Positions 14,395 through 61,741 of a DNA stretch of 64,000 nucleotides are shown one piece after another. This stretch comes from an uncultured delta proteobacterium. GTDB lineage: Bacteria; Desulfobacterota; Binatia; UBA9968. The translations under genes and the position numbers were made by a program. Within the stretch, counting starts at the first letter, position 1. The number at the start of each line of letters is the position of its first letter. The notes under the pieces were generated by a model. That model saw only the letters and a list, made by a program, of their open reading frames with translations, was not told where the DNA came from and ran no database searches. The stretch lies in assembly GCA_963727625.1 (NCBI GenBank), contig CAVSHR010000004.1, forward strand, positions 320,001 to 384,000, in the 5' to 3' direction.

Positions 14395-17300
14395 TCAATG
14401 AAAATCCCGGCTGCGCATGCTCGCCGGCTTCAGCTCCACTCTCGGCTCCCACAGTTCTTCCGCCACCAGATGCACTACTCCCTCTTCGGCCTGGATGGTG
14501 CCGCTGATACCGAGAAAGCTCGCGGTCTTCGCCAGCACCGCATAGCGCTGAAAAACGCTCTCCCAAATCACCGCATTCACAAAACCGGTTTCATCTTCCA
14601 GCGTCATGAACACGACGCCGCCGGCTGTCCCCGGCCGCTGCCGGCAGATCACCAGCCCGGCGTAGCGAATTTTTACGCCGTTTCTCATTTGCGCCACGGC
14701 GCGCGCGTCCGGTAATTTATGGCGAATCAAGCTCGCGCGCATCGGTTCGAGCGGATGGCGCCGCGCGCTGTGCGAAGTGCGGCGGTAATCCCAACCGACT
14801 TCCTCGAAGTCGCTCAAGGGCGCGAACCCCGGACGGCGTTCCCGCGCCGGCAGCGACAATGATTCTCCTCGCGTACGCGCCAAACGGCGCGCATCCCAGA
14901 GCGCGGTGCGCCGGTCGATGTGAAAAGAATCGAAGGCGCCGGATTCCGCAAGGGCGCTGAGCGAAGCTTCATCCAAACCCGTGCGCCGGGCGAAGTCCTG
15001 GAGCGATGTGAATGCTGCAGTACGGCGCGTGCGAATGATTCTCTCCCACTCGCCTTCCCCCAGTCCTTTGACGTAGCGTAGCCCCATGCGAACGGCGAAG
15101 CCGCCGTGGCTTTGCGTGCAAAGCTCCAGCGTGCAGTTCCAATCGCTCGTCTGGATGTCGATGCTACGCATGACGACGTGATGGCGCTTGGCGTCCTCGA
15201 CGATAGTCGCGGGCGTATAGAATCCCATCGGCTGGGCGTTGAGCAAGGCACAGGTATATTCCGCGTGATAGTGGCACTTGAGCCATGCGGTCGCGTAGGC
15301 GATAAGCGCGAAGCTCGCTGCGTGGCTCTCCGGAAAACCATACTCGCCGAAGCCGCGGATTTGCTCGAAGACCCGCTCGGCGAATTCCGCGGCGATGCCT
15401 TTCACCTGCATGCGCGTGATCAGCCGCTCGCGATGGCACTCCATTCTTCCGGTGCGGTGCCACGCCGCCATGTCGCGGCGCAGCTGATCGGCTTCGCCCG
15501 GCGTGTAGTCGGCGGCGATCATGGCGAGGCGCATCACCTGTTCTTGAAACAGCGGCACGCCGAGGGTTTTTTCCAGAACCGGTTTCAACGACGGATGCGG
15601 AAATTCCACATTTTCTTTGCCCTGTCTTCGGCGTAGATAGGGGTGCACCATGCCGCCGGTGATCGGTCCGGGACGGACGATGCTGATCTCGATGACCAGA
15701 TCGTAAAAGTTTCGCGGCCGGAGCCGCGGCAGCATCGCCATTTGCGCCCGGCTCTCGATCTGGAACACACCCACCGTGTCACCCTTGCAGATCATCTCGT
15801 AGGTTGCCGTGTCATTCGCGGGAATCGTCGCCATCGACAGATCGAAACCGCGGTGCTCATGCAGCAGCTTGAAGCAGAAATCGAGCTGGGTCAGGCCACC
15901 CAAGCCGAGCAGATCGACCTTGAACAGGCCGAGGTCTTCCACGTCTTCCTTGTCCCACTGGATCACCGTGCGCTCGGGCATGGTGGCGTTCTCGATGGGG
16001 ACGAGGTCGTACACCGGTTCGTGGCCGAGCAGAAAACCGCCGGGATGAATCGACAAGTGACGCGGGAAATCCAAAATCTCATTGGTGAGCTGGAGCAGAT
16101 GTTCGTTCACTCCACCGGACAGATCAAAACCCATCGCGGCCAGCACCTCCGGCCGCACGTTCTCGTAGGACGAAAGAAACTTGGCAACCCGATCCAGCGC
16201 CGTCTCCGACAGGCCCAGCGCCTTGCCGACGTCGCGCAGTGCCGAGCGCGCGCGGTAGCGTACCACGTTGGCGACCATGGCGGCGCGGTCGCGGCCGTAT
16301 TTCTGATAAACATGCTGGATCACTTCCTCGCGCCGGTCATGCTCGATGTCGAGATCGATATCCGGCGGTTCGGCCCGCTCCCGCGAGATAAAGCGCTCGA
16401 ACAACAGGCCGATCCGCTTTGGATCGACAGCGGTAATCCCCAGGCAATAGCACACAGCCGAATTGGCCGCCGAACCGCGCCCCTGACAGAGAATCCCGTT
16501 AGCGCGGCAGAACTCGACGATCTCCCACATGGTGAGAAAATAGCCGGGATAATCGAGCGCTTCGATGATCTCAATCTCCTTTTCAATCTGTACGACGATC
16601 TCATCGGGGATCCGGTCGGGATAGCGCCGGCGCGCGCCGGCCAAGGTTTGCCGGCGCAGCCATTCGGCCGATGTCATTCCGTTCGGCAATGTTTCGGACG
16701 GATAGCGGTAGCGGATTTCATCGAGCGAAAAATTGCAGCGCTCGGCGATTTCCAGCGTGCGCTCGACTGCGCCCGGGTCGTCGCCGAAAAGGCGCGCGAA
16801 AGCGTGCGGCGGCTTGAGCCCGTATTCGGCGTTGGGCTTGAGCTTGCGACCGCAGGAAGTGACGGGAATACCGTGGCAAATCGCGGTCAAGACATCCTGC
16901 AAACGGCGCCGCGCCGGGGTGTGGTACAGAACCTCGTTGGCAGCGGCCAAGGAAAAACCAAAGCGCTTGGCGCGCTTGCGCAGCCGCGCTTCCTGACTGA
17001 TTTCTTCTTCGCGGCGGTGGCGCGCAATCATGGCGTAAATCCGGTCGGCAAAAGCATCGCGGAGCTTGCCGAGCGCTTCATCCGGTTCAGCTTCACCGAT
17101 CAGCAAACTTTGCTCGCCGCCCCACAGTGCAACCAGTCCCGGCGCATGGGTGCAAATCTCGTCCCAAGTAACAACGCTTTCGCCTTTCCCCGAGCGCAAC
17201 CGCCCCTTCGTTAGCAATCGGCAGAGATTGGCATAGCCGCCACGGTCCTGCGCCAGCAGAACGATCGTCGAGCCATCTTCTACCGTCACTTCCGAACCGA

Positions 17301-17490
17301 CGATGAGCTTCATGCCGACTTCGCGCGCCTTCACATGAGCGCGCACCACGCCGTAGACGCCATCGCGGTCGGTCAGCGCGATCACCGGCAAGCCGAGCCG
17401 ATAAACCTCCTCCACCAGCTCGTCCGGATGGCTCGCGCCTTCGAGAAAAGAAAAATTACTCTTGCACCAGAGCGGCACGTAGAGAGACAT
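14395..17490 (-). CDS. dnaE2: Error-prone DNA polymerase DnaE2 (ImuC)
   Basis: [13 protein letters not shown] start, [26 protein letters not shown], diagnostic C-terminal SRDFH. Confidence 0.97.
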
Positions 17491-17749
17491 CGAGAATAGA
17501 CTTCAGCAAACGAACGCCGCAGTCAAAGGCGGCTTTCAGGAAACCACGGGATATTTTCTCTTTTGAGGGAGAAACACGCAGGTTAAGGATTTTTGTTTGT
17601 AGTGTCTCGGCTGCTACCGAAGAATCTCAGCAGCCGACATCAGTGTTCGCGAGATCTCCGCGCTAACCACCGATCGCAGAGATTCGCCATGGGGGCATAG
17701 GAACACCCGCCTTGAGCTTTATGCGGCCTAACGCTATCCCGCTGAGCCG
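17339..17749. repeat. Direct repeat copy A (dnaE2 5' end, leader and attC half)
   Basis: Aligns by eye with 18335-18748 with scattered substitutions. Confidence 0.9.
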
Positions 17750-17775
17750 GAATCGGGTCCGGCGGCAGGTTAGGC
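17726..17775 (-). other. Short (probably internally deleted) attC site
   Basis: GCCTAAC (17726) ... GTTAGGC (17769) immediately after the toxin stop codon. Confidence 0.65.
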
Positions 17776-17778
17776 TCT

Positions 17779-18042
17779 CTATCGGTAAACGTCCTTTCTG
17801 TGGCCAACTTTGACGATGTCGACCAGAAATTTCTCGTCGTCGATGGAATACAAGATACGATAGTTACCCTCTCGCACCCTATATCGGTCGAGGTGACCTG
17901 ATAATTTTTCACAACCAAACGGCCTTGGGTCCTCACTGAGGGATTGAATCCGTAGAACAATTCGTTGCCGGTCTTTCTTCTGTCCGACAGCGTCAATCTC
18001 TCTGCTTGCAGACGGCTTGATGACAACCCTATATCTTGCCAC
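17779..18042 (-). CDS. Type II toxin, RelE/ParE family (integron cassette)
   Basis: YRVVIKPSA.RE, PRPFGCEKLSG, YRVREGNYRILY.IDD, VGHRKDVYR. Confidence 0.9.
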   Translation of the reverse strand: MARYRVVIKPSASREIDAVGQKKDRQRIVLRIQSLSEDPRPFGCEKLSGHLDRYRVREGNYRILYSIDDEKFLVDIVKVGHRKDVYR

Positions 18043-18259
18043 GCCGTCTCAATGACCTCACCACGATTTCAAAGTCGACGCTCTTTTCGTGATGGCGTTC
18101 TTCAAACGCAGCCAGATCTTCCGCGTCCTCGGCCAACGCCAGTTTCACAGCGTCGTTGACCATATCAGAAATGGAACGATCGGTAGCTGCGGCCTTCAAT
18201 CGCAGGGCTCGATGAATCTCGGGTTCGAAATAAACGGTAGCTCGTTTGGGTAAACTCAT
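18029..18259 (-). CDS. Type II antitoxin, CopG/RHH family
   Basis: KRATVYFEPEIHRALRLKAA..SISDMVNDAV; overlaps toxin; own promoter TTGACG-17-TATTCT 6 nt before ATG with palindrome ACGTTGCAACGT. Confidence 0.85.
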   Translation of the reverse strand: MSLPKRATVYFEPEIHRALRLKAAATDRSISDMVNDAVKLALAEDAEDLAAFEERHHEKSVDFEIVVRSLRRRGKI

Positions 18260-18309
18260 ACGGGTAGAATAACGTTGCAACGTCATGACGTCAACATCCG
18301 ACCGGGAGA

Positions 18310-18486
18310 CTAACGTCGTGCGTTGAGCGGACGCGCCCGCACCACGCCGTAAACGCCGTCCCGGTCGGTCAGCGCGATCGCCGGCAAGCCGAGCCGATAA
18401 ACCTCCTCCACCAGCTCGTCCGGATGGCTCGCGCCTTCGAGAAAAGGAAAATTACTCTTGCACCAGAGCGGAACGTAGAGAGACAT
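18310..18486 (-). pseudogene. Truncated duplicate of dnaE2 5' end (58 aa, open frame)
   Basis: Translates [58 protein letters not shown]; stop lies in the GTTAG core at 18314. Confidence 0.85.
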
Positions 18487-18748
18487 CGAAAATAGACTTT
18501 AGCAAACGAACGCCGCAGTCAAAGGCGGGCTTTTCAGTAAGCCACGGAATATTTCCGCTTTCGAGGGAGAAACACGCTGGTTAAAGATTTTTGTTTGTAG
18601 TGTCTTGGCTGCTGCTCAAAAATTTCAGAAGCCAATATCAACGTTCGCGAGATCTCTGCGCTAACCCCCGATCGCAGACATTCGCCATGGGGGCATAGGA
18701 ACACCCGCCTTGGGCTTTACGCGGCGTAACGCGATGCCGCTGAGCCGC
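18335..18748. repeat. Direct repeat copy B (dnaE2 5' end, leader and attC half)
   Basis: Diverged copy of 17339-17749, offset about 997 bp. Confidence 0.9.
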
Positions 18749-18808
18749 TACAGCAAAAAAGTCCATGGATTACGAGTACTCGCCGTCGGCTCAAGCGGCG
18801 GGTTCGGC
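18724..18808 (-). other. attC site
   Basis: GCGTAAC ... GCCGCTGAGCCG / CGGCTCAAGCGGC ... GTTCGGC; R'' complements cassette start at 19301. Confidence 0.8.
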
Positions 18809-19282
18809 GGCACGAACCTCGACGTCCACATATTCACATCCGATCAGTGCATCCCGTCCGTTGAGGTCTGGATGTGAGTTGCTGTCGACGATGCACACGC
18901 GGTAGTACTGGATGAGTCGCCAACCCAATGCGTCGAAATCGAAGAAGCAGATCGGATGGATGATTTGCTTCTCCTCGGGCGGAATCCACGCAACGGGGTG
19001 GTCCCAGTATCCGGACGCCGGGATGTCGCGGTTCGCGTGCAACGGCAACTTGCCCGCATGATCCGCAAACAGTCGGTACTCCGTCAGAATCTCATTCCCG
19101 TGGTTCATCGGTATGGGCCGCACCTCCACACCGGCCCGACCAAGAACGCACTCGGCGAAGAGAGTGTTAGCGACTTTAACGAATTCGTCCGCGGTGTCCC
19201 ACGTCCCGTGGGATCGCATGTAGCTGTTCCAAAGGTGCCGCACCGCCTCCCGGAACTCGTGAATGTGTGGTGTGAGTATCAT
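18791..19282 (-). CDS. Hypothetical integron cassette protein
   Basis: 163-aa ORF filling the cassette between GTTCGGCGGC (19301) and matching R'' (18808). Confidence 0.7.
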   Translation of the reverse strand: MILTPHIHEFREAVRHLWNSYMRSHGTWDTADEFVKVANTLFAECVLGRAGVEVRPIPMNHGNEILTEYRLFADHAGKLPLHANRDIPASGYWDHPVAWIPPEEKQIIHPICFFDFDALGWRLIQYYRVCIVDSNSHPDLNGRDALIGCEYVDVEVRAAEPAA

Positions 19283-19294
19283 CGCGATGTTGCC

Positions 19295-19320
19295 GCCGAA
19301 CTAGTAATATACTGATCTGC
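19295..19320 (-). other. Solo attI-like site (attI-3)
   Basis: Minus strand CAGATCAG-TATA-N6-GTTCGGC resembles attI-1/2 (CTGGTCAG-YATA-N7-GTTA); no attC hairpin upstream. Confidence 0.55.
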
Positions 19321-19397
19321 CTTTCGCGATATTAATATCGGCAAAGGCCGCCTGCAAGGTAAGGGCCGGGCGTACAGGCAACTATCAACGTGACTCG

Positions 19398-19937
19398 CTA
19401 GTCGCTCTGTTGATACCACACGAACTGTTTGCCGTCCCAATAGATGAAAGCGCTCGCAGACTCGGACTTTGCGACCCAGAGGGAGTCTCCTTTGGGAGTT
19501 GGGGATTTGTTCTCCCAGCGGCTTTTGCGAACTTCCTGCTTCGGATAGACGCTCCAGTTGTCCATCCAATTGAAGTCGGCGCCGCCGTTTCGAAAGGCGC
19601 TCCCGGCTCCCAAGATTATCGGTTTTGTTTCGCCAAAAAGAAAAATGACGATACCTGTTTGGCCGGTGAGTTTGTTGCGCACGAGCACGGCGATATCGAG
19701 CTTTTGGTCTCCGTTGAAATCGCCGCTTTGAAAAAAAGGATTGAGGTGCAGACTTAGATCATAGTGCTTCGGCAACTGAGTTGATTGGGCAAGGCGCATA
19801 ACCCACTCCGGCAGATTGGAACACGGCGAAGCACCCGAAGGCGGGATTGGGCTATTGCACCATCCGGACTCTTCCGCGCCAACCGGAGTTGTGAGTCGCG
19901 AAAGGACTATCAGGAAAGCAATAACCAGTCGTACCAT
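19398..19937 (-). CDS. Secreted hypothetical protein (FG-GAP-like GDFNGD motif)
   Basis: Signal peptide MVRLVIAFL.., GDFNGDQKLDIAVLV, C-terminal YWDGKQFVWYQQSD. Confidence 0.65.
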   Translation of the reverse strand: MVRLVIAFLIVLSRLTTPVGAEESGWCNSPIPPSGASPCSNLPEWVMRLAQSTQLPKHYDLSLHLNPFFQSGDFNGDQKLDIAVLVRNKLTGQTGIVIFLFGETKPIILGAGSAFRNGGADFNWMDNWSVYPKQEVRKSRWENKSPTPKGDSLWVAKSESASAFIYWDGKQFVWYQQSD

Positions 19938-23504: not shown

Positions 23505-23894
23505 CTATTTTCCGATCAGCCGGCGCATCCATAATTCAACGATCAGTACCGCATTCGGCGGTATCAGGTCCTCGATTTCGTGCTCGCGGTAGGCGAGATG
23601 CGGGCTCAGGCGCACCTTGCGATAACCGCCTTGTTTCATACCGAGCAGCGAATACTCGACCCCGGCCATGGCTTGCCGCGTCCCAAGCTCGATCGAGTGA
23701 TCGACGAAGCGATAGCCCGCTTCGGTTCTGATCATTTGTTCGGGAAGGTACTCGGCCTGGCGCGCATTCAACGGAACTTCGTCGCCTTTGTTGAGAAAGA
23801 GCTTCAAATTGTAGATGACCCGGTCGCCCTTTTTTGCCGGCGTTCCACTGCCTTCGCGCTCGTCCAACAGTTTGATGCCGCTCCGTAATCTCAT
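23505..23894 (-). CDS. FKBP-type peptidyl-prolyl isomerase-like protein
   Basis: EGSG..AKKGDRV, GMKQGGYRKV..SPHLAY, IPPNAVLIVE. Confidence 0.8.
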   Translation of the reverse strand: MRLRSGIKLLDEREGSGTPAKKGDRVIYNLKLFLNKGDEVPLNARQAEYLPEQMIRTEAGYRFVDHSIELGTRQAMAGVEYSLLGMKQGGYRKVRLSPHLAYREHEIEDLIPPNAVLIVELWMRRLIGK

Positions 23895-24185: not shown

Positions 24186-25187
24186 CTACTCGACCTTACA
24201 TGCCTGACAGTCAACCGACACCATCCTGATATCGCTGCCGCGCCGGTAGGAATATTGAGTTGTCCCCGGTCCAATTTTGGGAATCGCCCGGCGCAGATCG
24301 TCTTCGCTGAGAAGCTTTTTACCTGCAACCGACAGAATGACGTCGCCGACATGTATGCCCGCCTTGGCCATCGGCCGGCCGCTTTCCACCTCCATCACCA
24401 CCGCGCCGGCCGGCATCGCGCCAAGCGTCGAGGCGCTCTGCTCGGGTGTGAGAAAAGCGATGCGCACACCGAGATCCGGCACATGAAATCCTCGCGCTAA
24501 CGACGTTGCGGGAATCGCGCCCCCGAGCGTGCCCACGAGGTCGTGGATACTTTTTTCCATATCGGTTGAGCCGACCGCCGGGTCAGTTATTTTCAAAGAC
24601 GTCGTTGGCTCTTGCGGTTGGGGCACGGCTTGACCGCCTCTCAGCAAATAACCGGCCATCCCGGCGCCGACGACGGCAATCGCGAGGGCCCCAATCGCCC
24701 AGGGCCTCAAGCGCCAATTCGTCTCGATTTCTTTGTGCGCCGGGGCCGGTCGTACATGCGCCGGCGATCCGCCGCCGGGTGGTGAATCATTGCCTGTCAG
24801 CTCAAGCAATTCGGTTACCCGCCCAACCAGGCGAAGAAATTCGTCATCACGGGCATTGCCGCTCCACTCGCTCAAGTCGGCGCCGTTAAGCAGCCTAAAC
24901 GCCAACGGCGCTTCGACATGCTCCAAAAATACCGGAACGAGAATGCCGCGGCGCTTGCCCTCCGAAGCCTCGTTGCGCACCCACTCGGAGGCAACCGACA
25001 AGGCCGACCAGAGCACGATAACGCATTTGGCTTGTGCGATCGCTTTTTCAATGACTTCGTCGAAAGATTTTCCGAGCGGGATCTCGCGGTCCCACCAGAC
25101 GTCCCAGCCGCGTGCGCCCAATGCCGCGGCGAGCTGCTGCGCCTGGATGCGATCCTCGGCCGCATAACTGATAAAAATTTCGTTCAT
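24186..25187 (-). CDS. TIR domain - TM - PDZ domain protein
   Basis: IFISYA..D..VWWD..SEWVRNE TIR; TM WAIGALAIAVVGAG; PDZ GAVVMEVESG.P..KAGIHVGDVIL. Confidence 0.85.
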   Translation of the reverse strand: MNEIFISYAAEDRIQAQQLAAALGARGWDVWWDREIPLGKSFDEVIEKAIAQAKCVIVLWSALSVASEWVRNEASEGKRRGILVPVFLEHVEAPLAFRLLNGADLSEWSGNARDDEFLRLVGRVTELLELTGNDSPPGGGSPAHVRPAPAHKEIETNWRLRPWAIGALAIAVVGAGMAGYLLRGGQAVPQPQEPTTSLKITDPAVGSTDMEKSIHDLVGTLGGAIPATSLARGFHVPDLGVRIAFLTPEQSASTLGAMPAGAVVMEVESGRPMAKAGIHVGDVILSVAGKKLLSEDDLRRAIPKIGPGTTQYSYRRGSDIRMVSVDCQACKVE

Positions 25188-28341: not shown

Positions 28342-29523
28342 TTATTTGACATCGGCCGCGCAGCGAAAGCCGGTCGCATCGTCAAGATGGCCGGGACTGG
28401 CGTGCATTCTTTTAGTCGCCGCGATTCTTACCGCGGTGTCGTACCACCCGCCGCCTCTTAGGACTTTTGCCGCACCGGTTTCGGGTCCTTTCGGATTTCG
28501 TGTTTCGGCGGAGGAGAAGCTTTCCGAGTACCAGTCGTTTACCCACTCCGCTACGTTGCCGGCAAGATCAAAAACGCCGAAGGGACTCATCCCCTTGGGA
28601 TATTTTCCCACCGGGGAAACGCCGTCTTGGTAAACTGGATTTTGGTAAGGCATGCCGAATCGCGCTTGAGCGTCGGCCGGCTCATCGTTGCCCCAAGGAT
28701 ACTTTCGCCCGTCGCCGCCGCGCGCGGCCTTTTCCCACTCCGCGTCCGTCGGCAAGCGCTTGCCGGCCCAGCGACAATAATTGGCGGCATCATGCCAATC
28801 GACCCCGACCACCGGTAGATCGCCGATCGCAGCGATCTCCCCCTGGGGCCAATCCTCGGGAATCTTTACATTCCCCGTGGCCTTTAAAAACCCGGCGTAG
28901 CGCGACAGCGTGACTTCAAATTTGTCCAAATAAAATGCATCAAGAAAGAGTTCCCGGCGCGGCGAATTTTCGTCGTCGCCCATGATAAAACTTCCCGCCG
29001 GGATCAGAACCGCCGGAGCGCCATCCTTGCCGACCGGCGGATGATTCTGCCGGACCTTTATGCCGTAAAGTACGCCGCCCCAAACGGCCGCGATCAGCGC
29101 CAGACCGGCACCCATTTGCTTCAGCCGCTTGCGGCGAAAATCGCCGGCAATGCGGGACACCTCCGCGCCTACACTCGCTGCGATATTGCCGTCCGGGCGG
29201 TAAATCGTTATGGCTTTGAGCGACGCCGGTATCGCCGTAAAATCGGCCTCACCGAGCGCCACCGGCAGAAGTTTTATTCGCGATCTCTCGGCGACCTCCA
29301 GCTCGCTGAGCGTATAACTCCGCTTATCGATTGCGTTGGCCGAGAGCAAAAAGATGAAAAGATGCGAACTTTCGATCGCCTGGCGGATGCGATTGTGAAA
29401 CTCATCGCCGGCGGGCAGATCGGCGCGATCGAAGAATACCTTGTGTCCCTGATCGCGAAGCGCCAGATAGATAGCTTTCGCCGCCTCGCGATCTTCGGAG
29501 GCGTAACTAAGAAAAATTCTCAT
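28342..29523 (-). CDS. TIR domain - TM - FGE-sulfatase (SUMF1/EgtB/PvdO-like) protein
   Basis: IFLSYASED..VFFD..YTLSE TIR; TM; IPAGSFIMG, RLPTDAEWEKAARG, DLAGNVAEW, GFRCA. Confidence 0.9.
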   Translation of the reverse strand: MRIFLSYASEDREAAKAIYLALRDQGHKVFFDRADLPAGDEFHNRIRQAIESSHLFIFLLSANAIDKRSYTLSELEVAERSRIKLLPVALGEADFTAIPASLKAITIYRPDGNIAASVGAEVSRIAGDFRRKRLKQMGAGLALIAAVWGGVLYGIKVRQNHPPVGKDGAPAVLIPAGSFIMGDDENSPRRELFLDAFYLDKFEVTLSRYAGFLKATGNVKIPEDWPQGEIAAIGDLPVVGVDWHDAANYCRWAGKRLPTDAEWEKAARGGDGRKYPWGNDEPADAQARFGMPYQNPVYQDGVSPVGKYPKGMSPFGVFDLAGNVAEWVNDWYSESFSSAETRNPKGPETGAAKVLRGGGWYDTAVRIAATKRMHASPGHLDDATGFRCAADVK

Positions 29524-43082: not shown

Positions 43083-43890
43083 AAAACGGGGTCAGAGAAC
43101 TTTTTCAATCCGAATCCCAGGCATCTTCCTAGGCCGGCCACGGGCTTCACCGACTAATCGTCGCCCAGTCATCGCCTCCACCTGTTTCTGAAACGTTTCT
43201 CGCCCAATCAAACGACCCCGCTGCGTTGCCTGGCGAATTTTATCCCATTCCATTTCGTCGCATTGCCTTTCTATCCACTCTCGATATTTGTCTTGTCTCT
43301 CGTCCGCAGTCAATCCCAATCCTTCGTACCAAGGATCCACATCCAGCAAACGATCCGAGATGCCCAATGCCCGGCTCCGATAACTACTCCAACGATAATC
43401 CCTCGGATGCTTCACAAGACAAGCTCTCACCGGATTCAGCTCAATATACCTGCTACACGCTATCAGGTATTCGTCACGACTGACCGCTGCGCTCTTAAAC
43501 CTTCCCTCCCACAACGTACCCGTACGACCATAAGTTTCATTCACGTATCGAACATATCGTCGTCCTACGCTCTGCATGAATCGACCGAGGCCACCAGCTT
43601 CTGCGGGTTCTACCAGCAGATGGAAATGATTCGTCATTAGAACGTACGCATCAATCCTGCAATGACATTTGACTTTGGCCTGTCGGAGACATTCCAAGAA
43701 GAATCGATAATCGTCGTCGGCAAAAAAGCTCGCGGCTCGATTGTTTCCGCGCTGAATAATGTGCTGGGGATAAGCGGGAATCGTGATTCGACGCAACCGC
43801 GCCATGGAATAACTCGATGTCTGCGAGTTTTGCCAGAAACTATCGCTAGATTAGAGCGTCGTCAAAGAAAAAGTTCTCTGACCCCGTTTT
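43083..43890 (-). mobile_element. RAYT-carrying element with perfect 24-bp terminal inverted repeats
   Basis: AAAACGGGGTCAGAGAACTTTTTC (43083-43106) and its exact reverse complement (43867-43890). Confidence 0.85.
43092..43805 (-). CDS. REP-associated tyrosine transposase (RAYT, Y1 HUH)
   Basis: HIIQRGNNR, YVLMTNHFHLL (HUH), GTLWEGRF, YIELNPVRA, YRWSSY. Confidence 0.92.
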   Translation of the reverse strand: MARLRRITIPAYPQHIIQRGNNRAASFFADDDYRFFLECLRQAKVKCHCRIDAYVLMTNHFHLLVEPAEAGGLGRFMQSVGRRYVRYVNETYGRTGTLWEGRFKSAAVSRDEYLIACSRYIELNPVRACLVKHPRDYRWSSYRSRALGISDRLLDVDPWYEGLGLTADERQDKYREWIERQCDEMEWDKIRQATQRGRLIGRETFQKQVEAMTGRRLVGEARGRPRKMPGIRIEKVL

Positions 43891-50923: not shown

Positions 50924-52012
50924 TTATGGCCGACCAAGAGGTTGGATCGCACCGATCCCATCCAGCGGGCTTCGGACTCCCCGCCCGCCACGGTTCAAGA
51001 CGTGGGTATAAATCATCGTCGTACTGACGTCGGCGTGTCCAAGTAACTCTTGCACCGTTCGAATATCATACCCATTTTCAAGTAGATGGGTGGCGAAGGA
51101 ATGGCGCATGCTGTGCGGGGCAGCTGGTTTTGTGATATCAGCCCTGAGCCTGGCCTCTTTGAACGCCTTTTGGAGAACGGACTCGTGGAGATGGTGTCGC
51201 CGTTTTTCTCCTGTGGCCCGATCGATGAAATGGCTAGTCGCAGGAAACACCCATTGCCAACCCCATTCTTTGCCTGCGCTCGGGTATTTTCGCTCCAGCG
51301 CATTTGGCAGACTGACGCGCCCCAGGCCCGCCTTCAGATCCTCTTCGTGCTGCCGCTTCACTGCCTCCAGGTGTTTGAGGAGAGGCTCTTTCACCATGGC
51401 GGGAAGCATAGTGTGTCTGTCTTTATCTCCCTTGCCGGCGCGAACGACTAGCTGGTTCCTGGAAAAGTCGACGTCCTTGACCCTAAGACGGCAACATTCC
51501 ATGAGCCGGAGCCCGGCACCATACAAAAGCATGGCCATCAACCACGGAGTCCCCTCCACACAAGCCAAAAGCCGCTGAACTTCTTCTTTCGTTAAGACGA
51601 CGGGCAGGCGTCTTTGCACTTTGGCGCGAACGACACCCTCAATCAGACCGATTTTTCGCTGCAGCACTGCCTGATATAAAAACAACAGCGCGTTGAAGGC
51701 TTGATTCTGCGTTGATGAGCTAACGTGAGACTCTGTCGCCAGGCTGGAGAGAAAACGGGCAATCTCTGGCTCACCCATTTCCGCCGGATGACGCTTGTTG
51801 TGGAAAAAGATGAACCGCTTGATCCAATGAACATAGCTGTCCTCGGTCTTGGGACTGTAATGCCGCGTGCGGATCGCTTGCCGTACCTGTTCGAGGAGTT
51901 TGGGCTTGTGATCGGCGGGCAGCGGTGAAGCTCCGACTCCAAGGTTTTTACCTCCGTCGATCACGGCAAGCGTGCGGTTCATTGATATGCGCGTATTTAC
52001 TGTTTCCATCAT
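50924..52012 (-). CDS. intI: Integron integrase (tyrosine recombinase)
   Basis: [15 protein letters not shown], IntI-specific insert [45 protein letters not shown]; RBS aaggagg. Confidence 0.97.
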
Positions 52013-52025
52013 GCGCCCTCCTTGA

Positions 52026-52215
52026 TTATCCCGCATAGCGTAGCGACTGCTTCCTCGAAAACTCCTTCGCCAACCGCTCATCTGGTTTTCCGTCGTACCG
52101 CGCCTGCAAGTCGAGCCAGTAACGCTCGGACATGCCGAAGTAGTGCGCGAGGCGATGGGCGATGTCGCCGTTGATCGGCCGCTGGCCCTGGACGATCTCG
52201 TCGATGCGCGAGTGC
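52026..52215 (-). pseudogene. 5'-truncated HigA-like HTH antitoxin copy abutting intI
   Basis: C-terminal [34 protein letters not shown]...SLRYAG near-identical to 52908-53204; N-terminus unrelated. Confidence 0.75.
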
Positions 52216-53204: not shown

Positions 53205-53233
53205 TGTTGAGTCTCCTTATCTAACTTTCCTAG

Positions 53234-53266
53234 GTTCAAGACGTTCAAACCGTTCAAAAAGTTAAG
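53234..53266 (+). repeat. 9-bp-period GTTCAA array downstream of four-helix-bundle gene
   Basis: GTTCAA at 53234, 53243, 53252; GTTAAG at 53261. Confidence 0.85.
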
Positions 53267-53699
53267 CCGTCTCGGATGGGGTCGAAAAGCTCGGACTTTT
53301 TGGACGCTTTGTCGCAGTATATTTTGATCCTTTCATGCCACTGCCCTTTAAGTAGTCAATTAGATTGCTGATCATAATTGATAAACGCCGCAGTGAATTG
53401 CTGGCATCGCTACAGTCTTTCGCCGCTACATACGATTGATCCAGGGCTACGTAAAGTTGACACCGAGCTTCCCCGCACGATCCTTTAGCGACGTAGAGAA
53501 ACTGAATAAACTCTTGGTTGCCGCCCCGTTCGAATCCTTCGGCAATGTTTGACATGATGGAGACAGCCGCTCGGCGAATCTGATCGCGCAATCCGAAATC
53601 TTTTGAGAATTTCGGATCTCTTGTGAGCTGATAAATTGCCCGTGTTAAGGCCCTAGCATCTTTCCAGATTTCCAAATCTTCAAAGTTTTTCACTTGCAT
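53262..53699 (-). CDS. Four helix bundle protein (23S rRNA IVS-protein family)
   Basis: FEDLEIW..A, F.KDFGLRDQIRRAAVSIMSNIAEGFER, F.QFL..AKGS.GE. Confidence 0.92.
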   Translation of the reverse strand: MQVKNFEDLEIWKDARALTRAIYQLTRDPKFSKDFGLRDQIRRAAVSIMSNIAEGFERGGNQEFIQFLYVAKGSCGEARCQLYVALDQSYVAAKDCSDASNSLRRLSIMISNLIDYLKGSGMKGSKYTATKRPKSPSFSTPSETA

Positions 53700-53711
53700 G
53701 GATGCTCCCTC

Positions 53712-53756
53712 CTAAACAATTTGAACGTTTTGAACGGCTTGAACGATTTGAACGCT
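53712..53756 (-). repeat. 9-bp-period TTGAAC array between imuB and four-helix-bundle gene
   Basis: TTGAAC at 53721, 53730, 53739, 53748. Confidence 0.85.
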
Positions 53757-53758
53757 TT

Positions 53759-55303
53759 TTATTCGACCGTCCCCTGCCAGAACCACCGCCGCCTTACCCG
53801 ATCGTAATACAGCCACAACAAATCCCCGCGGCGGGTTTCGGCGAAGTAATACTCGCGCTGGATTTCCCGGTTCCACCAGCCGCCGGAAAAGACGTAGGGG
53901 CCAGTGAGCTTGTCGATGGTGCCGTGCTTGGGGCCGAGAATCAGCCAGCCGTCTTCGTGCGAGTGGTAGGGCCCGCCGGCGAGGCGAACCGGTTTGGCGG
54001 CGATGCGGCGCACCAACATATTTGGAGCGGAGAGGTTCAAGCCGTTCAAATCGTTCAACTGCTTCGCTCCGTTCAAAACGTTTTTGGGCAATTTAAGCTG
54101 GGTCAAGGGCTCCCAGGTAAAGCGCGCTTCGGGCAGGTGGCCGTCGGTGAGCTTGGCGTACACGACAGATTCTTCGCCGAATTCGGCGCGCAGGCGGGCG
54201 AGCGCGCGGTTGGCGGCGTCGAGGTCGCGCGCCGGCTGCTCGGCGAACAAACGAAGCTGCTCACGGGTCGCGGCGCAGGCTTCGGCGCTGAGCTCGATCT
54301 CGCTGACGCCGGCCGGTAGCTGCAGCGACTCCAGCCGCAACCGGACGAGATCCAATATCTGCGCGGCATCGAGCGTCGGTACCGCCGGACGCAGCGACTC
54401 ACGAAGCCAAGGGCCGTGATGGAGCAGCAAAGCGATCTCGAGCGCGAGCAGCGCCTGATGGCGTTGCGCCAGCGTCGCCAGCAGTGGATGGAGCAGTTGC
54501 TTGATCAAAAACAACAGTCGCGTGCTGTCTTCTTCCGGATCGTCGAGAAGATATTTTTGCCGGGCGGGCTCTTCGGGCGCCTGCGGTACGAGCGGCGTCC
54601 AGAGATCGCCGGCGGCCATGCGGTAAAGCCGGTGCGCCTTTTTGCCGAAGCGCTCGCGCAGCCCGCCCGGCGGCAGCGCCAGCAAGCCGCCGACGGTTTT
54701 GATGCCGAGCTTGAAAAGCATGTCGCGAAAAGCGGGCTCGATATTTAGTCGATTGAGCGGCACTTCGCGCGCGACGTTGCGTTCCTCAGCAAGATCGCGA
54801 AAGATCGTGATTCCCTCTCTCGCTTTGGCGACGGCGTAGCTGCCGAAGCGCGTGAAGCCGACGACAAAATGAGCGGTGAATCCTTGGGCGCATAGATCTT
54901 TCTGCATGGCGCAAGCCCACTGCTTCGGCGAGGCATAGAGCCTCTGCAAACCGGCGCCGTTGAGCCAGAAAACCCCGGGCTCCTCGGCCGACGGCTCAAC
55001 CTCGGGAGTAAAGCGCATGAGGCGGTGGGACAAGTCATCGACGGCTTTTTTATTTTCAGCGGCTGAAATCTCGCCGGCGCGGAGCGTCGAAGCCAGAGAA
55101 AACGCTGCGGCGTAGCGCAGGCCGGGCAGCACACCGTGGCGGCGCGCTTTTTCGTTCACCCAGAGGACCACGCCCTGCGGCTTGTCTTCGGCCACCACCG
55201 CCGCCGGATGGCCGGCCCAGTCGGGATGGCGCCGGAGCAAAAGCTGCAGCGGAAAAGCCGGCAGATCAACACAGGCCAGCCGGTCCGTTGTAAAGCTCTT
55301 CAT
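53759..55303 (-). CDS. imuB: Y-family polymerase-like mutasome protein ImuB
   Basis: ACVDLPAFPLQ, RFTPEVE, LRERFG, C-terminal GGWW...REYYFAE...WLY; overlaps imuA. Confidence 0.92.
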   Translation of the reverse strand: MKSFTTDRLACVDLPAFPLQLLLRRHPDWAGHPAAVVAEDKPQGVVLWVNEKARRHGVLPGLRYAAAFSLASTLRAGEISAAENKKAVDDLSHRLMRFTPEVEPSAEEPGVFWLNGAGLQRLYASPKQWACAMQKDLCAQGFTAHFVVGFTRFGSYAVAKAREGITIFRDLAEERNVAREVPLNRLNIEPAFRDMLFKLGIKTVGGLLALPPGGLRERFGKKAHRLYRMAAGDLWTPLVPQAPEEPARQKYLLDDPEEDSTRLLFLIKQLLHPLLATLAQRHQALLALEIALLLHHGPWLRESLRPAVPTLDAAQILDLVRLRLESLQLPAGVSEIELSAEACAATREQLRLFAEQPARDLDAANRALARLRAEFGEESVVYAKLTDGHLPEARFTWEPLTQLKLPKNVLNGAKQLNDLNGLNLSAPNMLVRRIAAKPVRLAGGPYHSHEDGWLILGPKHGTIDKLTGPYVFSGGWWNREIQREYYFAETRRGDLLWLYYDRVRRRWFWQGTVE

Positions 55304-55938: not shown

Positions 55939-55983
55939 GACGGTATGATTGCGGAGCTGCTAAAGGACAGTAACGTCGCGTTT

Positions 55984-56039
55984 GCAGGAATGTAGTTGCA
56001 GGAATGTAGTCGCAGGAATGTAGTCGCAGGAATGTAGAA
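55984..56039 (+). repeat. Tandem repeat, 4 x 14 bp
   Basis: GCAGGAATGTAGTT/GTC/GTC/GAA. Confidence 0.95.
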
Positions 56040-60656: not shown

Positions 60657-60845
60657 ACAGGGATTTCCTACCAAACTGTACATACATTACTGCGTCGTTT
60701 CGAAGCAATTAAAATGCACCTACAACGATAGCCGCTGCTTTGAGGTCGGTACCACAACGAATCCTGAAAAACTAGCCAAACATTAGATGGGCTTCCGCCC
60801 ACACTGCATCGAACCGTTCCAGGAGAGAAGTTTCGAAGTTTGACA

Positions 60846-60935
60846 GTTTCAATCGTTCCAACGGTTCGAATGGTTCAATCCGGTCGAATCTGTTTAAACG
60901 ACTGGAACGTTTTGAACGACTTGAACGATTGGAAC
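60846..60935. repeat. Head-to-head 9-bp-period GTTC/GAAC arrays directly after lexA
   Basis: GTTC-type units 60846-60887 then T(T/G)GAAC units at 60903, 60912, 60921, 60930. Confidence 0.8.
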
Positions 60936-60937
60936 TC

Positions 60938-61553: not shown

Positions 61554-61582
61554 TGTATACTGAAAATATTTTCAGTAGTCAA
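61554..61582 (-). promoter_or_regulatory. lexA promoter with perfect 20-bp palindromic operator
   Basis: TTGACT-17-TATACA, 7 nt before ATG; spacer holds TACTGAAAATATTTTCAGTA (61558-61577). Confidence 0.8.
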
Positions 61583-61613
61583 GACGTGGCGGAAAGCGCG
61601 CAGGAACGTGCTC

Positions 61614-61721
61614 GTTCAAGGGTTCGAGGTTCAAAAGCTCAAGGGCTTAAACCGTGCTTCTAACGCGGTTATCGGACAATCCCAGTCCGGCCCTGAACCT
61701 TGAACAATTGAACTTTTGAAC
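61614..61721. repeat. Inverted 7-8-bp-period GTTCAA/TTGAAC arrays upstream of lexA
   Basis: GTTC(A/G)A at 61614, 61622, 61629; TTGAAC at 61700, 61708, 61716. Confidence 0.75.
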
Positions 61722-61741
61722 GGTGTAACGCGCGAAGTGCA

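Follow-up and report, generated by a model that had tools for sequence, protein, structure and literature searches.

How does the beginning of a chromosomal gene come to lie, as a second and truncated copy, between the attC sites of an integron? This question is raised by a 64,000-nucleotide (nt) stretch of DNA (hereafter, the window, to which all coordinates refer) that covers 320-384 kb of its contig (CAVSHR010000004.1) in a metagenome assembly of approximately 6.6 Mb in 15 contigs (hereafter, G000). In the window, the 5' end of dnaE2, the gene for an error-prone DNA polymerase, is duplicated upstream of the intact gene, and the two copies flank a toxin-antitoxin (TA) cassette. The explanation that we prefer, and to which we give about an even chance of being correct, is that this structure is not a device but a recombination scar, left by a one-sided homologous and otherwise illegitimate exchange with a related strain. 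The locus bears on two open questions, namely, how cassette arrays are exchanged without the integrase and how DNA that is not a cassette gets between attC sites.

Two diverged copies of the dnaE2 5' end

The original prediction, made from the sequence of the window, described two diverged direct repeats at the 5' end of dnaE2. These repeats are real. A repeat search of the window, pairwise alignment and BLAST all recover copy A at positions 17339-17749 and copy B at 18335-18747, with 91% identity over 411 nt; these, like all other features of the dnaE2-stub locus, are on the minus strand. The repeat search divides each copy between two adjoining repeat families, one of 194 nt with 95% identity (17339-17532 and 18335-18528) and the other of 216 nt with 88% identity (17534-17749 and 18532-18747), the spacing between the copies being 996-998 nt. 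BLAST against the entire genome finds these two copies and no others (91% over 411 nt, E = 5.8e-162). When aligned from the core site to codon 51, the copies show 359 matches, 36 mismatches and 2 gap columns that correspond to a 2-nt indel, that is, 90.9% identity, and the longest identical run is 66 nt.

The content of each copy is as originally described: the right half of an attC site with its core site (GTTAGGC at 17732→17726 in copy A and GTTACGC at 18730→18724 in copy B), a leader of about 235 nt, and codons 1-51 of dnaE2. In copy A, the alignments delimit leader A as the 235 nt (17491-17725) between the core site and the ATG of the intact dnaE2, so that the leader of the full gene indeed starts at the attC core. 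The intact gene (14395-17490), of which the first 51 codons (17338-17490) are part of copy A, encodes a protein of 1031 amino acids (aa) that matches the DnaE2 subfamily model over its full length (NF004225, 1360.9 bits against a cut-off of 939, residues 3-1031) and contains the Pfam domains PHP, DNA_pol3_alpha, finger, HHH_6 and OB. In copy B, the second leader (leader B, 18487-18723 in the alignments) is followed by a dnaE2 stub, an open 58-aa reading frame in the list of open reading frames (ORFs; 18310-18486) that consists of dnaE2 codons 1-51 and 7 junction codons, yields a partial PHP match in Pfam (28.9 bits) and, as predicted, ends with a TAG stop inside a core site (GTTAGTC, 18314→18308). 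The TA cassette reported between the repeats is also there, with genes for a ribbon-helix-helix (RHH) antitoxin and a ParE/RelE-family toxin. On the minus strand, the order from 5' to 3' is thus an upstream cassette containing an uncharacterized gene, orf163, and ending in the site attC_B, then leader B, the stub ORF, the antitoxin, the toxin, the site attC_A, leader A and the intact dnaE2. In its anatomy, the locus is thus as the original prediction had it, from repeats and core sites to TA cassette and integron setting.

The adjoining cassettes are mobile units

For the detection of attC sites, we built a covariance model (R1) from 4 similar attCs near intI, the integron integrase gene of the window; R1 recovered the 5 remaining attCs independently of its 4 training sites, and a second model (R2) was rebuilt from all nine (42.9-57.6 kb). 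These nine attCs, located between 57538 and 43008, are all on the minus strand and score 36.6-63 bits with R2, for which they are the training set. In the scan of the full window with R2, all good matches were on the minus strand, and only two attCs were found near dnaE2, at 18723-18808 and 17726-17775.

The second of these is attC_A (17726-17775; R'' GCCTAAC ... R' GTTAGGC), probably the 50-nt attC of the TA cassette itself, with perfect cores, a low R2 score (13.2 bits, E = 0.49), ends exactly as expected and a hairpin fold with z = -2.07. From core site to core site, the ParE/RHH cassette occupies 589 bp (17726-18314), with boundaries that can be compared in metagenome loci and in three related genomes (G014, G019 and G046). 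The antitoxin gene (18029-18286; 85 aa as listed) scores just under the family cut-off (PF20605, 26.8 bits against 27.2), and its relatives start at an internal MSLPKRA. It precedes and overlaps by 14 nt the toxin gene (17779-18042; 87 aa; PF05016, 38.3 bits against a cut-off of 23), relatives of which in metagenomes share 80-91% protein identity, and the pairing with ParE is kept in G014, G019 and G046. Judging from the profile matches and gene order, the pair at 17779-18286 is a type II TA module with a ParE/RelE toxin and an RHH antitoxin. A promoter-like site of the cassette (TTGACG-17 nt-TATTCT, 18266-18294) was detected by a consensus scan, as a pattern match only.

A search of metagenome contigs with the toxin protein, from which 80 loci were kept, yielded the whole TA unit in 30 of them, with 78-90% nucleotide identity. 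Across these 30 copies, homology never extends beyond 18324 upstream or 17722 downstream; it starts at 18315 in 5 copies and at 18324 in 1, and in 15 loci attC_A is kept as the 3' end of the cassette, with homology down to 17722-17728. In at least 9 of the metagenome loci, a complete attC precedes the cassette. The flanks, including the sequence after attC_A, vary from locus to locus, and none of the 30 copies is joined to dnaE2 or leader sequence. The cassette is also found in G046 and, upstream of imuA/imuB, in G014 and G019. Because the same core-bounded unit recurs amid different flanks, it is a genuine mobile integron cassette. In G019, this same cassette is the last unit before imuA.

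The orf163 cassette (18724-19303, delimited with the help of rhizosphere contigs) extends from a GTTCGGC core-like site to attC_B and carries an ORF (18791-19282) with no family match in Pfam or NCBIfam. Contigs from two rhizosphere runs carry this cassette together with attC_B at approximately 97.5% identity, and the matches stop at the core sites (18727/18742 and 19301), with an unlike flank after 18727 in one of the runs; this unit, too, is a mobile cassette. Its attC_B (18724-18808; R'' GCCGAAC ... R' GTTACGC, with an extra T in L'') is the best R2 match outside the training set (18.0 bits, E = 0.029), with a fold that is not significant (z = -0.21). Given that attC_B belongs to the mobile orf163 cassette and attC_A to the TA cassette, both leaders begin exactly at a cassette boundary, and the likeness of the two attC right halves, which the original prediction counted as part of the repeats, reflects the family resemblance of attCs and not the duplication.

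Approximately 70 nt located 5' of the orf163 core-like site (19297-19370) contain a hairpin and occur at very high depth, with varied flanks, in rhizosphere metagenome contigs. We considered this segment as a candidate attI, given that some 26 nt resemble the attI region after intI, and rejected it, there being no BLAST match in 80 intI loci.

The junction between the stub and the TA cassette

At the junction (18308-18337), codon 51/52 of dnaE2 is fused to what remains of a foreign attC, namely, its right half (L' GCTCAAC, a spacer of 7 nt and R' GTTAGTC). The homology of copy B with dnaE2 ends after GTGCGGGCGC, within codon 51/52, and is followed downstream of the breakpoint by GTCCGCTCAACGCACGAC-GTTAGTC, that is, an L' box, a 7-nt spacer and an R' core site, which is the form of an attC right half. 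The left half of this attC is missing, approximately 17-30 nt separate the last dnaE2 base from the core site, and the junction neither folds as an attC hairpin (z = +0.23) nor yields an R2 match. The leader and the stub have no attC of their own, the L'-R' half-site being all there is, and no copies of the leader outside dnaE2 contexts were found by BLAST of the related genomes, in a pattern search of metagenomes or among the 30 TA loci.

The integron integrase exchanges strands at G|TT. The join lies off this crossover point and hence is illegitimate, that is, was not made by the integrase at a normal site. Integron integrases can also use secondary sites, so we considered an event in which IntI recombined an attC with a GTT in dnaE2, either inserting the cassette or generating the duplication. 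An intI gene that appears functional from its sequence is present in the window, and the stub ORF does end in a GTTAGTC core site; however, 17-30 nt resembling an L' box and spacer stand before that core site, so that the crossover is not at G|TT, and a simple insertion would split dnaE2 rather than duplicate its 5' end together with a 235-nt leader. That these 17-30 nt are native to the cassette is disfavored by the onset of homology in metagenome copies, only at 18315 (5 copies) or 18324 (1 copy). We regard a secondary-site event as highly improbable.

The same junction speaks to the suspicion that the locus is an assembly chimera of two co-occurring strains. The copies look like two alleles, and the estimated contamination of G000 is 6.3%, as such a chimera would have it. 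Against this, the half-attC has at most a few bases in common with the stub, an overlap much too short for assembly software to span; the contig is a long one, in an assembly of only 15; and comparable stubs are present in two independent assemblies (G003 and G005, see below). All of this makes a chimera very unlikely.

At the breakpoint, the sequence is GC-rich and similar to the inner stem of the attC type found in this genome and, for this reason, a short microhomology at the junction is plausible.

Divergence of the copies and a proposed history

All genomes used for comparison are, like G000, metagenome assemblies. Within codons 1-51, copies A and B differ at 8 positions, of which 6 are synonymous and 2 non-synonymous: S14P is derived in B, at a residue that is invariant in 14 relatives, and A36V is derived in A. 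The resulting dS is 0.18 and dN is 0.018, with dN/dS of 0.10 (37.7 synonymous and 115.3 non-synonymous sites). The probability of at most 2 non-synonymous changes among 8 is 0.004 if both copies are neutral and 0.047 if B has been unconstrained since the split. The leaders differ by 28 substitutions and one 2-nt indel; polarized against G005, an unpublished genome with 9% contamination on which several of our comparative points rest, 10 of these changes are derived in A, 10 are derived in B and 8 are ambiguous. The low dN/dS and the symmetry of the leader changes suggest that the copies diverged as working genes in separate lineages. On the simplest reading of this pattern, copy B would have been the 5' end of a working dnaE2 for most of the time since the split, the two copies being alleles of two lineages that came together later.

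We propose the following history. Two close lineages would have had cassette arrays in which the attC core site at the array end was directly followed by the same leader and dnaE2, and which differed in the last cassette, orf163 in one lineage and ParE/RHH in the other. DNA of one lineage would then have entered the other. At one end, a homologous crossover anchored in dnaE2 may have taken place; at the other end, an illegitimate join would have connected codon 51/52 of the resident dnaE2 to the middle of the donor attC preceding the TA cassette. The predicted product starts with the resident leader B and dnaE2 codons 1-51, continues with half an attC and then the TA cassette and attC_A, and ends with the donor leader A and an intact dnaE2. 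A single homology-facilitated illegitimate event of this kind would give the observed order directly. The donor as a lineage of its own, the route by which its DNA would have entered and the microhomology at the join belong to this proposal; the dN/dS of 0.10 (p = 0.047) and the analogy with G003 suggest a distinct donor.

There is documented precedent for homology-facilitated illegitimate recombination from three transformable species, in which the joins are at 3-10 bp (PMC6382021). The likeness lies in the combination of a homologous anchor on one side with an illegitimate join at a few shared bases on the other, through which foreign DNA enters the chromosome. The difference is that the process was demonstrated in the laboratory with transformable species, whereas here it would have left a natural scar, with a proposed microhomology.

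The principal alternative is a segmental duplication in situ, from the middle of the attC through the TA cassette, attC_A and the leader to codon 51, by unequal illegitimate exchange between sister chromosomes; subsequently, the integrase would have excised the upstream TA copy, possibly, with a neighboring cassette, and the copies would have diverged within the genome. Copies A and B are each other's closest relatives (94.9%), which fits such an origin, the map is reachable in two ordinary steps, and an attC of the attC_B type directly precedes the TA cassette in G014, so that the ancestral order is plausible. Similarly, the S14P replacement at an invariant residue gives copy B the appearance of a pseudogene. 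However, 6 of the 8 coding changes are synonymous, which is unlikely under free drift of B (p = 0.047), and the leader changes are symmetrical, 10 to 10. Under the simplest model of this kind, moreover, the half-attC should have been copied from the right half of attC_B, whereas the two match at about 15-17 of 25 positions in a manual alignment (approximately 65%), compared to 88-95% for the repeats. Divergence of about 12-18% at neutral sites would imply a long-lived useless stub with a frame that is still open, and more steps are needed than for the scar. We consider duplication in situ possible and, on balance, unlikely.

Several observations nonetheless count against the scar. With only 8 changes behind it, the dN/dS test is of marginal significance (p = 0.047); the same map also results from a duplication and a single subsequent excision that takes out two cassettes; and the donor lineage and natural competence or another route of entry are, for this uncultured group, proposals. 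The evidence comes from metagenome assemblies throughout, with contamination of 6.3% in G000 and 9% in G005. The 94.9% identity of A and B makes them each other's nearest relatives, the next best being at 87-88%, and no mosaic breakpoint was detected in the full dnaE2 in a sliding-window comparison with G005, G044, G014 and G003, relatives that are 56-88% identical per 150-nt window.

Stubs and replacements upstream of dnaE2 in the genus

Among the 31 genomes of the genus, 22 encode dnaE2, and in 3 of these 22 (G000, G003 and G005) a second dnaE2-type 5' piece lies upstream of the intact gene; the second match in the remaining genomes is the replicative polymerase, at 31-35% identity. In G003, the stub corresponds to residues 3-68, is interrupted at codon 4 by a premature stop and is located 1.8 kb 5' of the intact dnaE2, with part of a carbonic anhydrase gene after it. 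This stub shares 89% identity with G023, whereas the full G003 copy groups with G019 (94%), so the stub and the gene come from different lineages. In G005, the stub is decayed (53% identity over 38 residues, four stops), and after it come a CTG-N10-CAG box, intI, a HigBA cassette with an attC, a second unit, a core-like site, the leader and dnaE2. The G005 leader is homologous to that of G000 over the entire length.

Among 41 related genomes searched with BLAST, the leader was found solely in G000 and, in part, in G005; it is absent upstream of dnaE2 in the other 20 genomes of the genus with this gene, was found in none of the metagenome contigs searched with a 26-nt degenerate pattern and had no coverage in 4 soil or rhizosphere runs. 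The gene located before the stubs in G003 and G005 is, in G019, the immediate upstream neighbor of dnaE2, whereas G044, G014, G012 and G002 lack the leader and have a DUF2238 gene right next to dnaE2. The varied neighbors of the stubs and of dnaE2 indicate that the region upstream of dnaE2 has been repeatedly replaced, with an intact dnaE2 kept each time.

Few stretches of dnaE2 are as well conserved at the nucleotide level as its first 150 nt (85-87% identity to relatives). A broader and rather doubtful generalization is that, in this genus, the conserved dnaE2 5' end serves as a standing anchor by which lineages swap the dnaE2-proximal end of the integron, up to the whole platform of intI plus cassettes as in G005, leaving stubs behind. 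As a by-product, chromosomal DNA, namely, the leader with the 5' end of the gene, would come to lie between two attCs and so become part of a composite excisable cassette. If this were so, it would provide a natural, integrase-independent first step for the entry of non-cassette DNA, possibly, with a promoter, into the cassette pool. The scar proposed for G000 would itself be a dated natural example of the remodeling of an array end by ordinary recombination anchored in a conserved flanking gene, with the junction preserved to the base, and with two parallel stub cases in the genus (G003 and G005).

Leader and stub as potential functional elements

The original prediction offered two readings of the repeats, a switch that deletes the TA module and swaps the dnaE2 promoter allele, and chromosomal DNA in the process of becoming a cassette. 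For the first, the putative -10 elements that it named (TAAAGT in the copy and TGAAGT before the full gene) do not pass a promoter scan, being only 15 nt apart from TTGACT, and no sigma-70-like promoter site was found in either leader with the consensus scan. Nor do the leaders appear to be structured RNAs: there was no Rfam match at the gathering score in the whole window or at E up to 1 in 17300-19450, and the three-sequence consensus fold was rejected, with a positive covariation term (+1.68) and many broken pairs.

No CTG-N10-CAG LexA box is present in 17491-17725 or 18487-18723. A perfect palindromic box, TACTGAAAATATTTTCAGTA, precedes lexA (61558-61577) and is the window's only AT-rich CTG-N10-CAG match that resembles the box of the relatives. 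The lexA ORF as listed includes this box, immediately after its 5' end, and the same type of box is found before intI in G005 and before dnaE2 in G013. Given this distribution, the CTG-N10-CAG box is probably the LexA operator of the genus, with the true start of lexA downstream of it.

As for the switch, the deletion routes lead one way, and excision between attC_B and attC_A leaves leader A unchanged, which, together with the lack of a LexA box or promoter match, speaks against promoter swapping. A wider functional interpretation would have the leader lend a stress-responsive promoter of the dnaE2 type to the last cassette, or recombination between the repeats act as a switch that removes the TA module and changes the promoter allele. 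With leader B, the stub and the TA genes all in one orientation, read-through into the TA genes is possible, and the identical run of 66 nt would allow RecA-dependent deletion. These features have to be set against two leaders that contain no promoter-like site, TTGACT and TGAAGT/TAAAGT being 15 nt apart, and no CTG-N10-CAG box, unlike the region before lexA; a TA cassette that has a promoter-like site of its own; a deletion that would be irreversible; and the lack of the leader before dnaE2 in 20 of the genomes of the genus that have this gene. We consider a functional module very unlikely, and the stub is probably an inert, non-functional remnant.

The second reading can be kept only in a weak sense, in that the core site of attC_B and attC_A now enclose the leader and stub, and in principle the 998-bp unit of leader B, stub, TA genes and attC_A could be excised as one composite cassette. 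The stronger sense did not survive, in that the leader and stub have no attC of their own and the join lies off G|TT. There was no sign of composite-cassette excision, with the leader in none of the metagenome contigs and none of the 30 TA copies joined to it. Three candidate joints in soil and rhizosphere runs (17318>18406, 17482>18410 and 17775>18728) were rejected, having short sides of 22-36 nt and less than 95% likeness and coming from other organisms' contigs.

Deletion between the repeats, or excision between attC_B and attC_A, would remove the antitoxin gene and would be expected to be selected against. The loss of TA cassettes from chromosomal integrons has been proposed to be penalized (PMC13108822). 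The TA cassette is thus placed where loss of the scar would carry a penalty, and this expectation would help the scar to persist. The sedentary chromosomal integrons of the Vibrio type (PMC13108822, PMC11023631) share with this locus an attC-bounded type II TA cassette with its own promoter in a chromosomal array, and the expectation that loss of the TA genes is penalized, stabilizing the neighboring DNA. In contrast to those arrays, the TA cassette here is the last unit before a housekeeping SOS gene and is flanked by a 0.4-kb duplication, the upstream attC is truncated, intI is co-oriented with the cassettes, and the host was assigned in our analysis as a soil acidobacterium.

An integron lodged in the SOS mutagenesis locus

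The repeats had been placed inside a cassette array; the integron context stands, and the mid-array position does not, the repeats belonging to a two-attC cluster that adjoins dnaE2. The integrase gene intI (50924-52081, minus strand; TIGR02249, 467.3 bits against a cut-off of 265, model positions 1-314) comes 1.7 kb after imuB (53759-55303) and 33 kb before dnaE2, all on the same strand, and the intI-proximal attC array spans 50034 to 43008. The R2 covariance scan revealed no credible attC in the 24 kb between 43008 and 18808; the only candidate, at 23688-23744 (E = 0.24), lies inside an FKBP gene and was discarded as not credible. This 24-kb block is syntenic with that of the relative G044, in which attCs are present at the equivalent place after imuB and intI was not detected by tblastn at 1e-8. 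An extra base on the L'' side marks the canonical top-strand orientation of an attC; the match to this orientation implies that the cassettes and intI are co-oriented. When the sequence was inspected for an attI site and a Pc promoter, a GTTAGCC core-like site was seen about 130 nt downstream of intI.

Clusters of attC sites without a nearby integrase are known as CALINs. The locus resembles these in having two attCs with cassettes 24 kb from the nearest intI-proximal attC; it differs in that the cluster abuts dnaE2 and in that G005 has the same leader-dnaE2 junction after a complete integron with intI.

The location of intI in the vicinity of SOS genes is not confined to G000. In 6 of the 22 genomes of the genus with imuB, which include G005, G006, G012, G014 and G016, intI is found 0.9-2.9 kb downstream of imuB on the same strand. 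Where all three genes are on one contig (G000, G006 and G014), the order is imuB, intI, 23-33 kb of other sequence and dnaE2; among the genomes of the genus, imuB and dnaE2 are adjacent in G008 only. The repeats concern the distal, dnaE2 end of this region and not the intI end. Among 80 intI loci from many phyla, 6 have imuB, dnaE2 or lexA within the flank, immediately adjacent in 5; the intI loci with SOS-gene neighbors are L022, L050, L059, L076, L085 and L092. Our literature searches, as judged from titles and the openings of abstracts, returned only general papers on SOS and no description of an integron between imuB and dnaE2. In this genus, such an integron physically links cassette shuffling to the SOS mutagenesis genes.

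Other features of the window

Several additional features of the window deserve mention. A second attC cluster (57538→57475, 56807→56751 and 56137→56053), with HigBA and Gp49/HTH TA cassettes, sits between lexA and imuA and ends on the upstream region of imuA. Directly 5' of imuA (approximately 55960-56020), after an attC core-like site, a 15-nt unit (CTACATTCCTGCGA-like) occurs four times in tandem. An ORF for an IS200-type Y1 transposase (43092-43805) is located within the final attC-bounded unit of the array near intI, and the 24-kb block encodes two TIR-domain proteins, TIR-PDZ (24186-25187) and TIR-FGE-sulfatase (28342-29523), which are possible defense genes. After imuB, a gene of the PF05635 family (23S rRNA intervening-sequence protein) has on either side inverted arrays in which GTTCAA recurs with a period of 10 nt (53205-53758), and pairs of arms of such arrays, with no gene between them, flank lexA (60684-60937 and 61583-61741).

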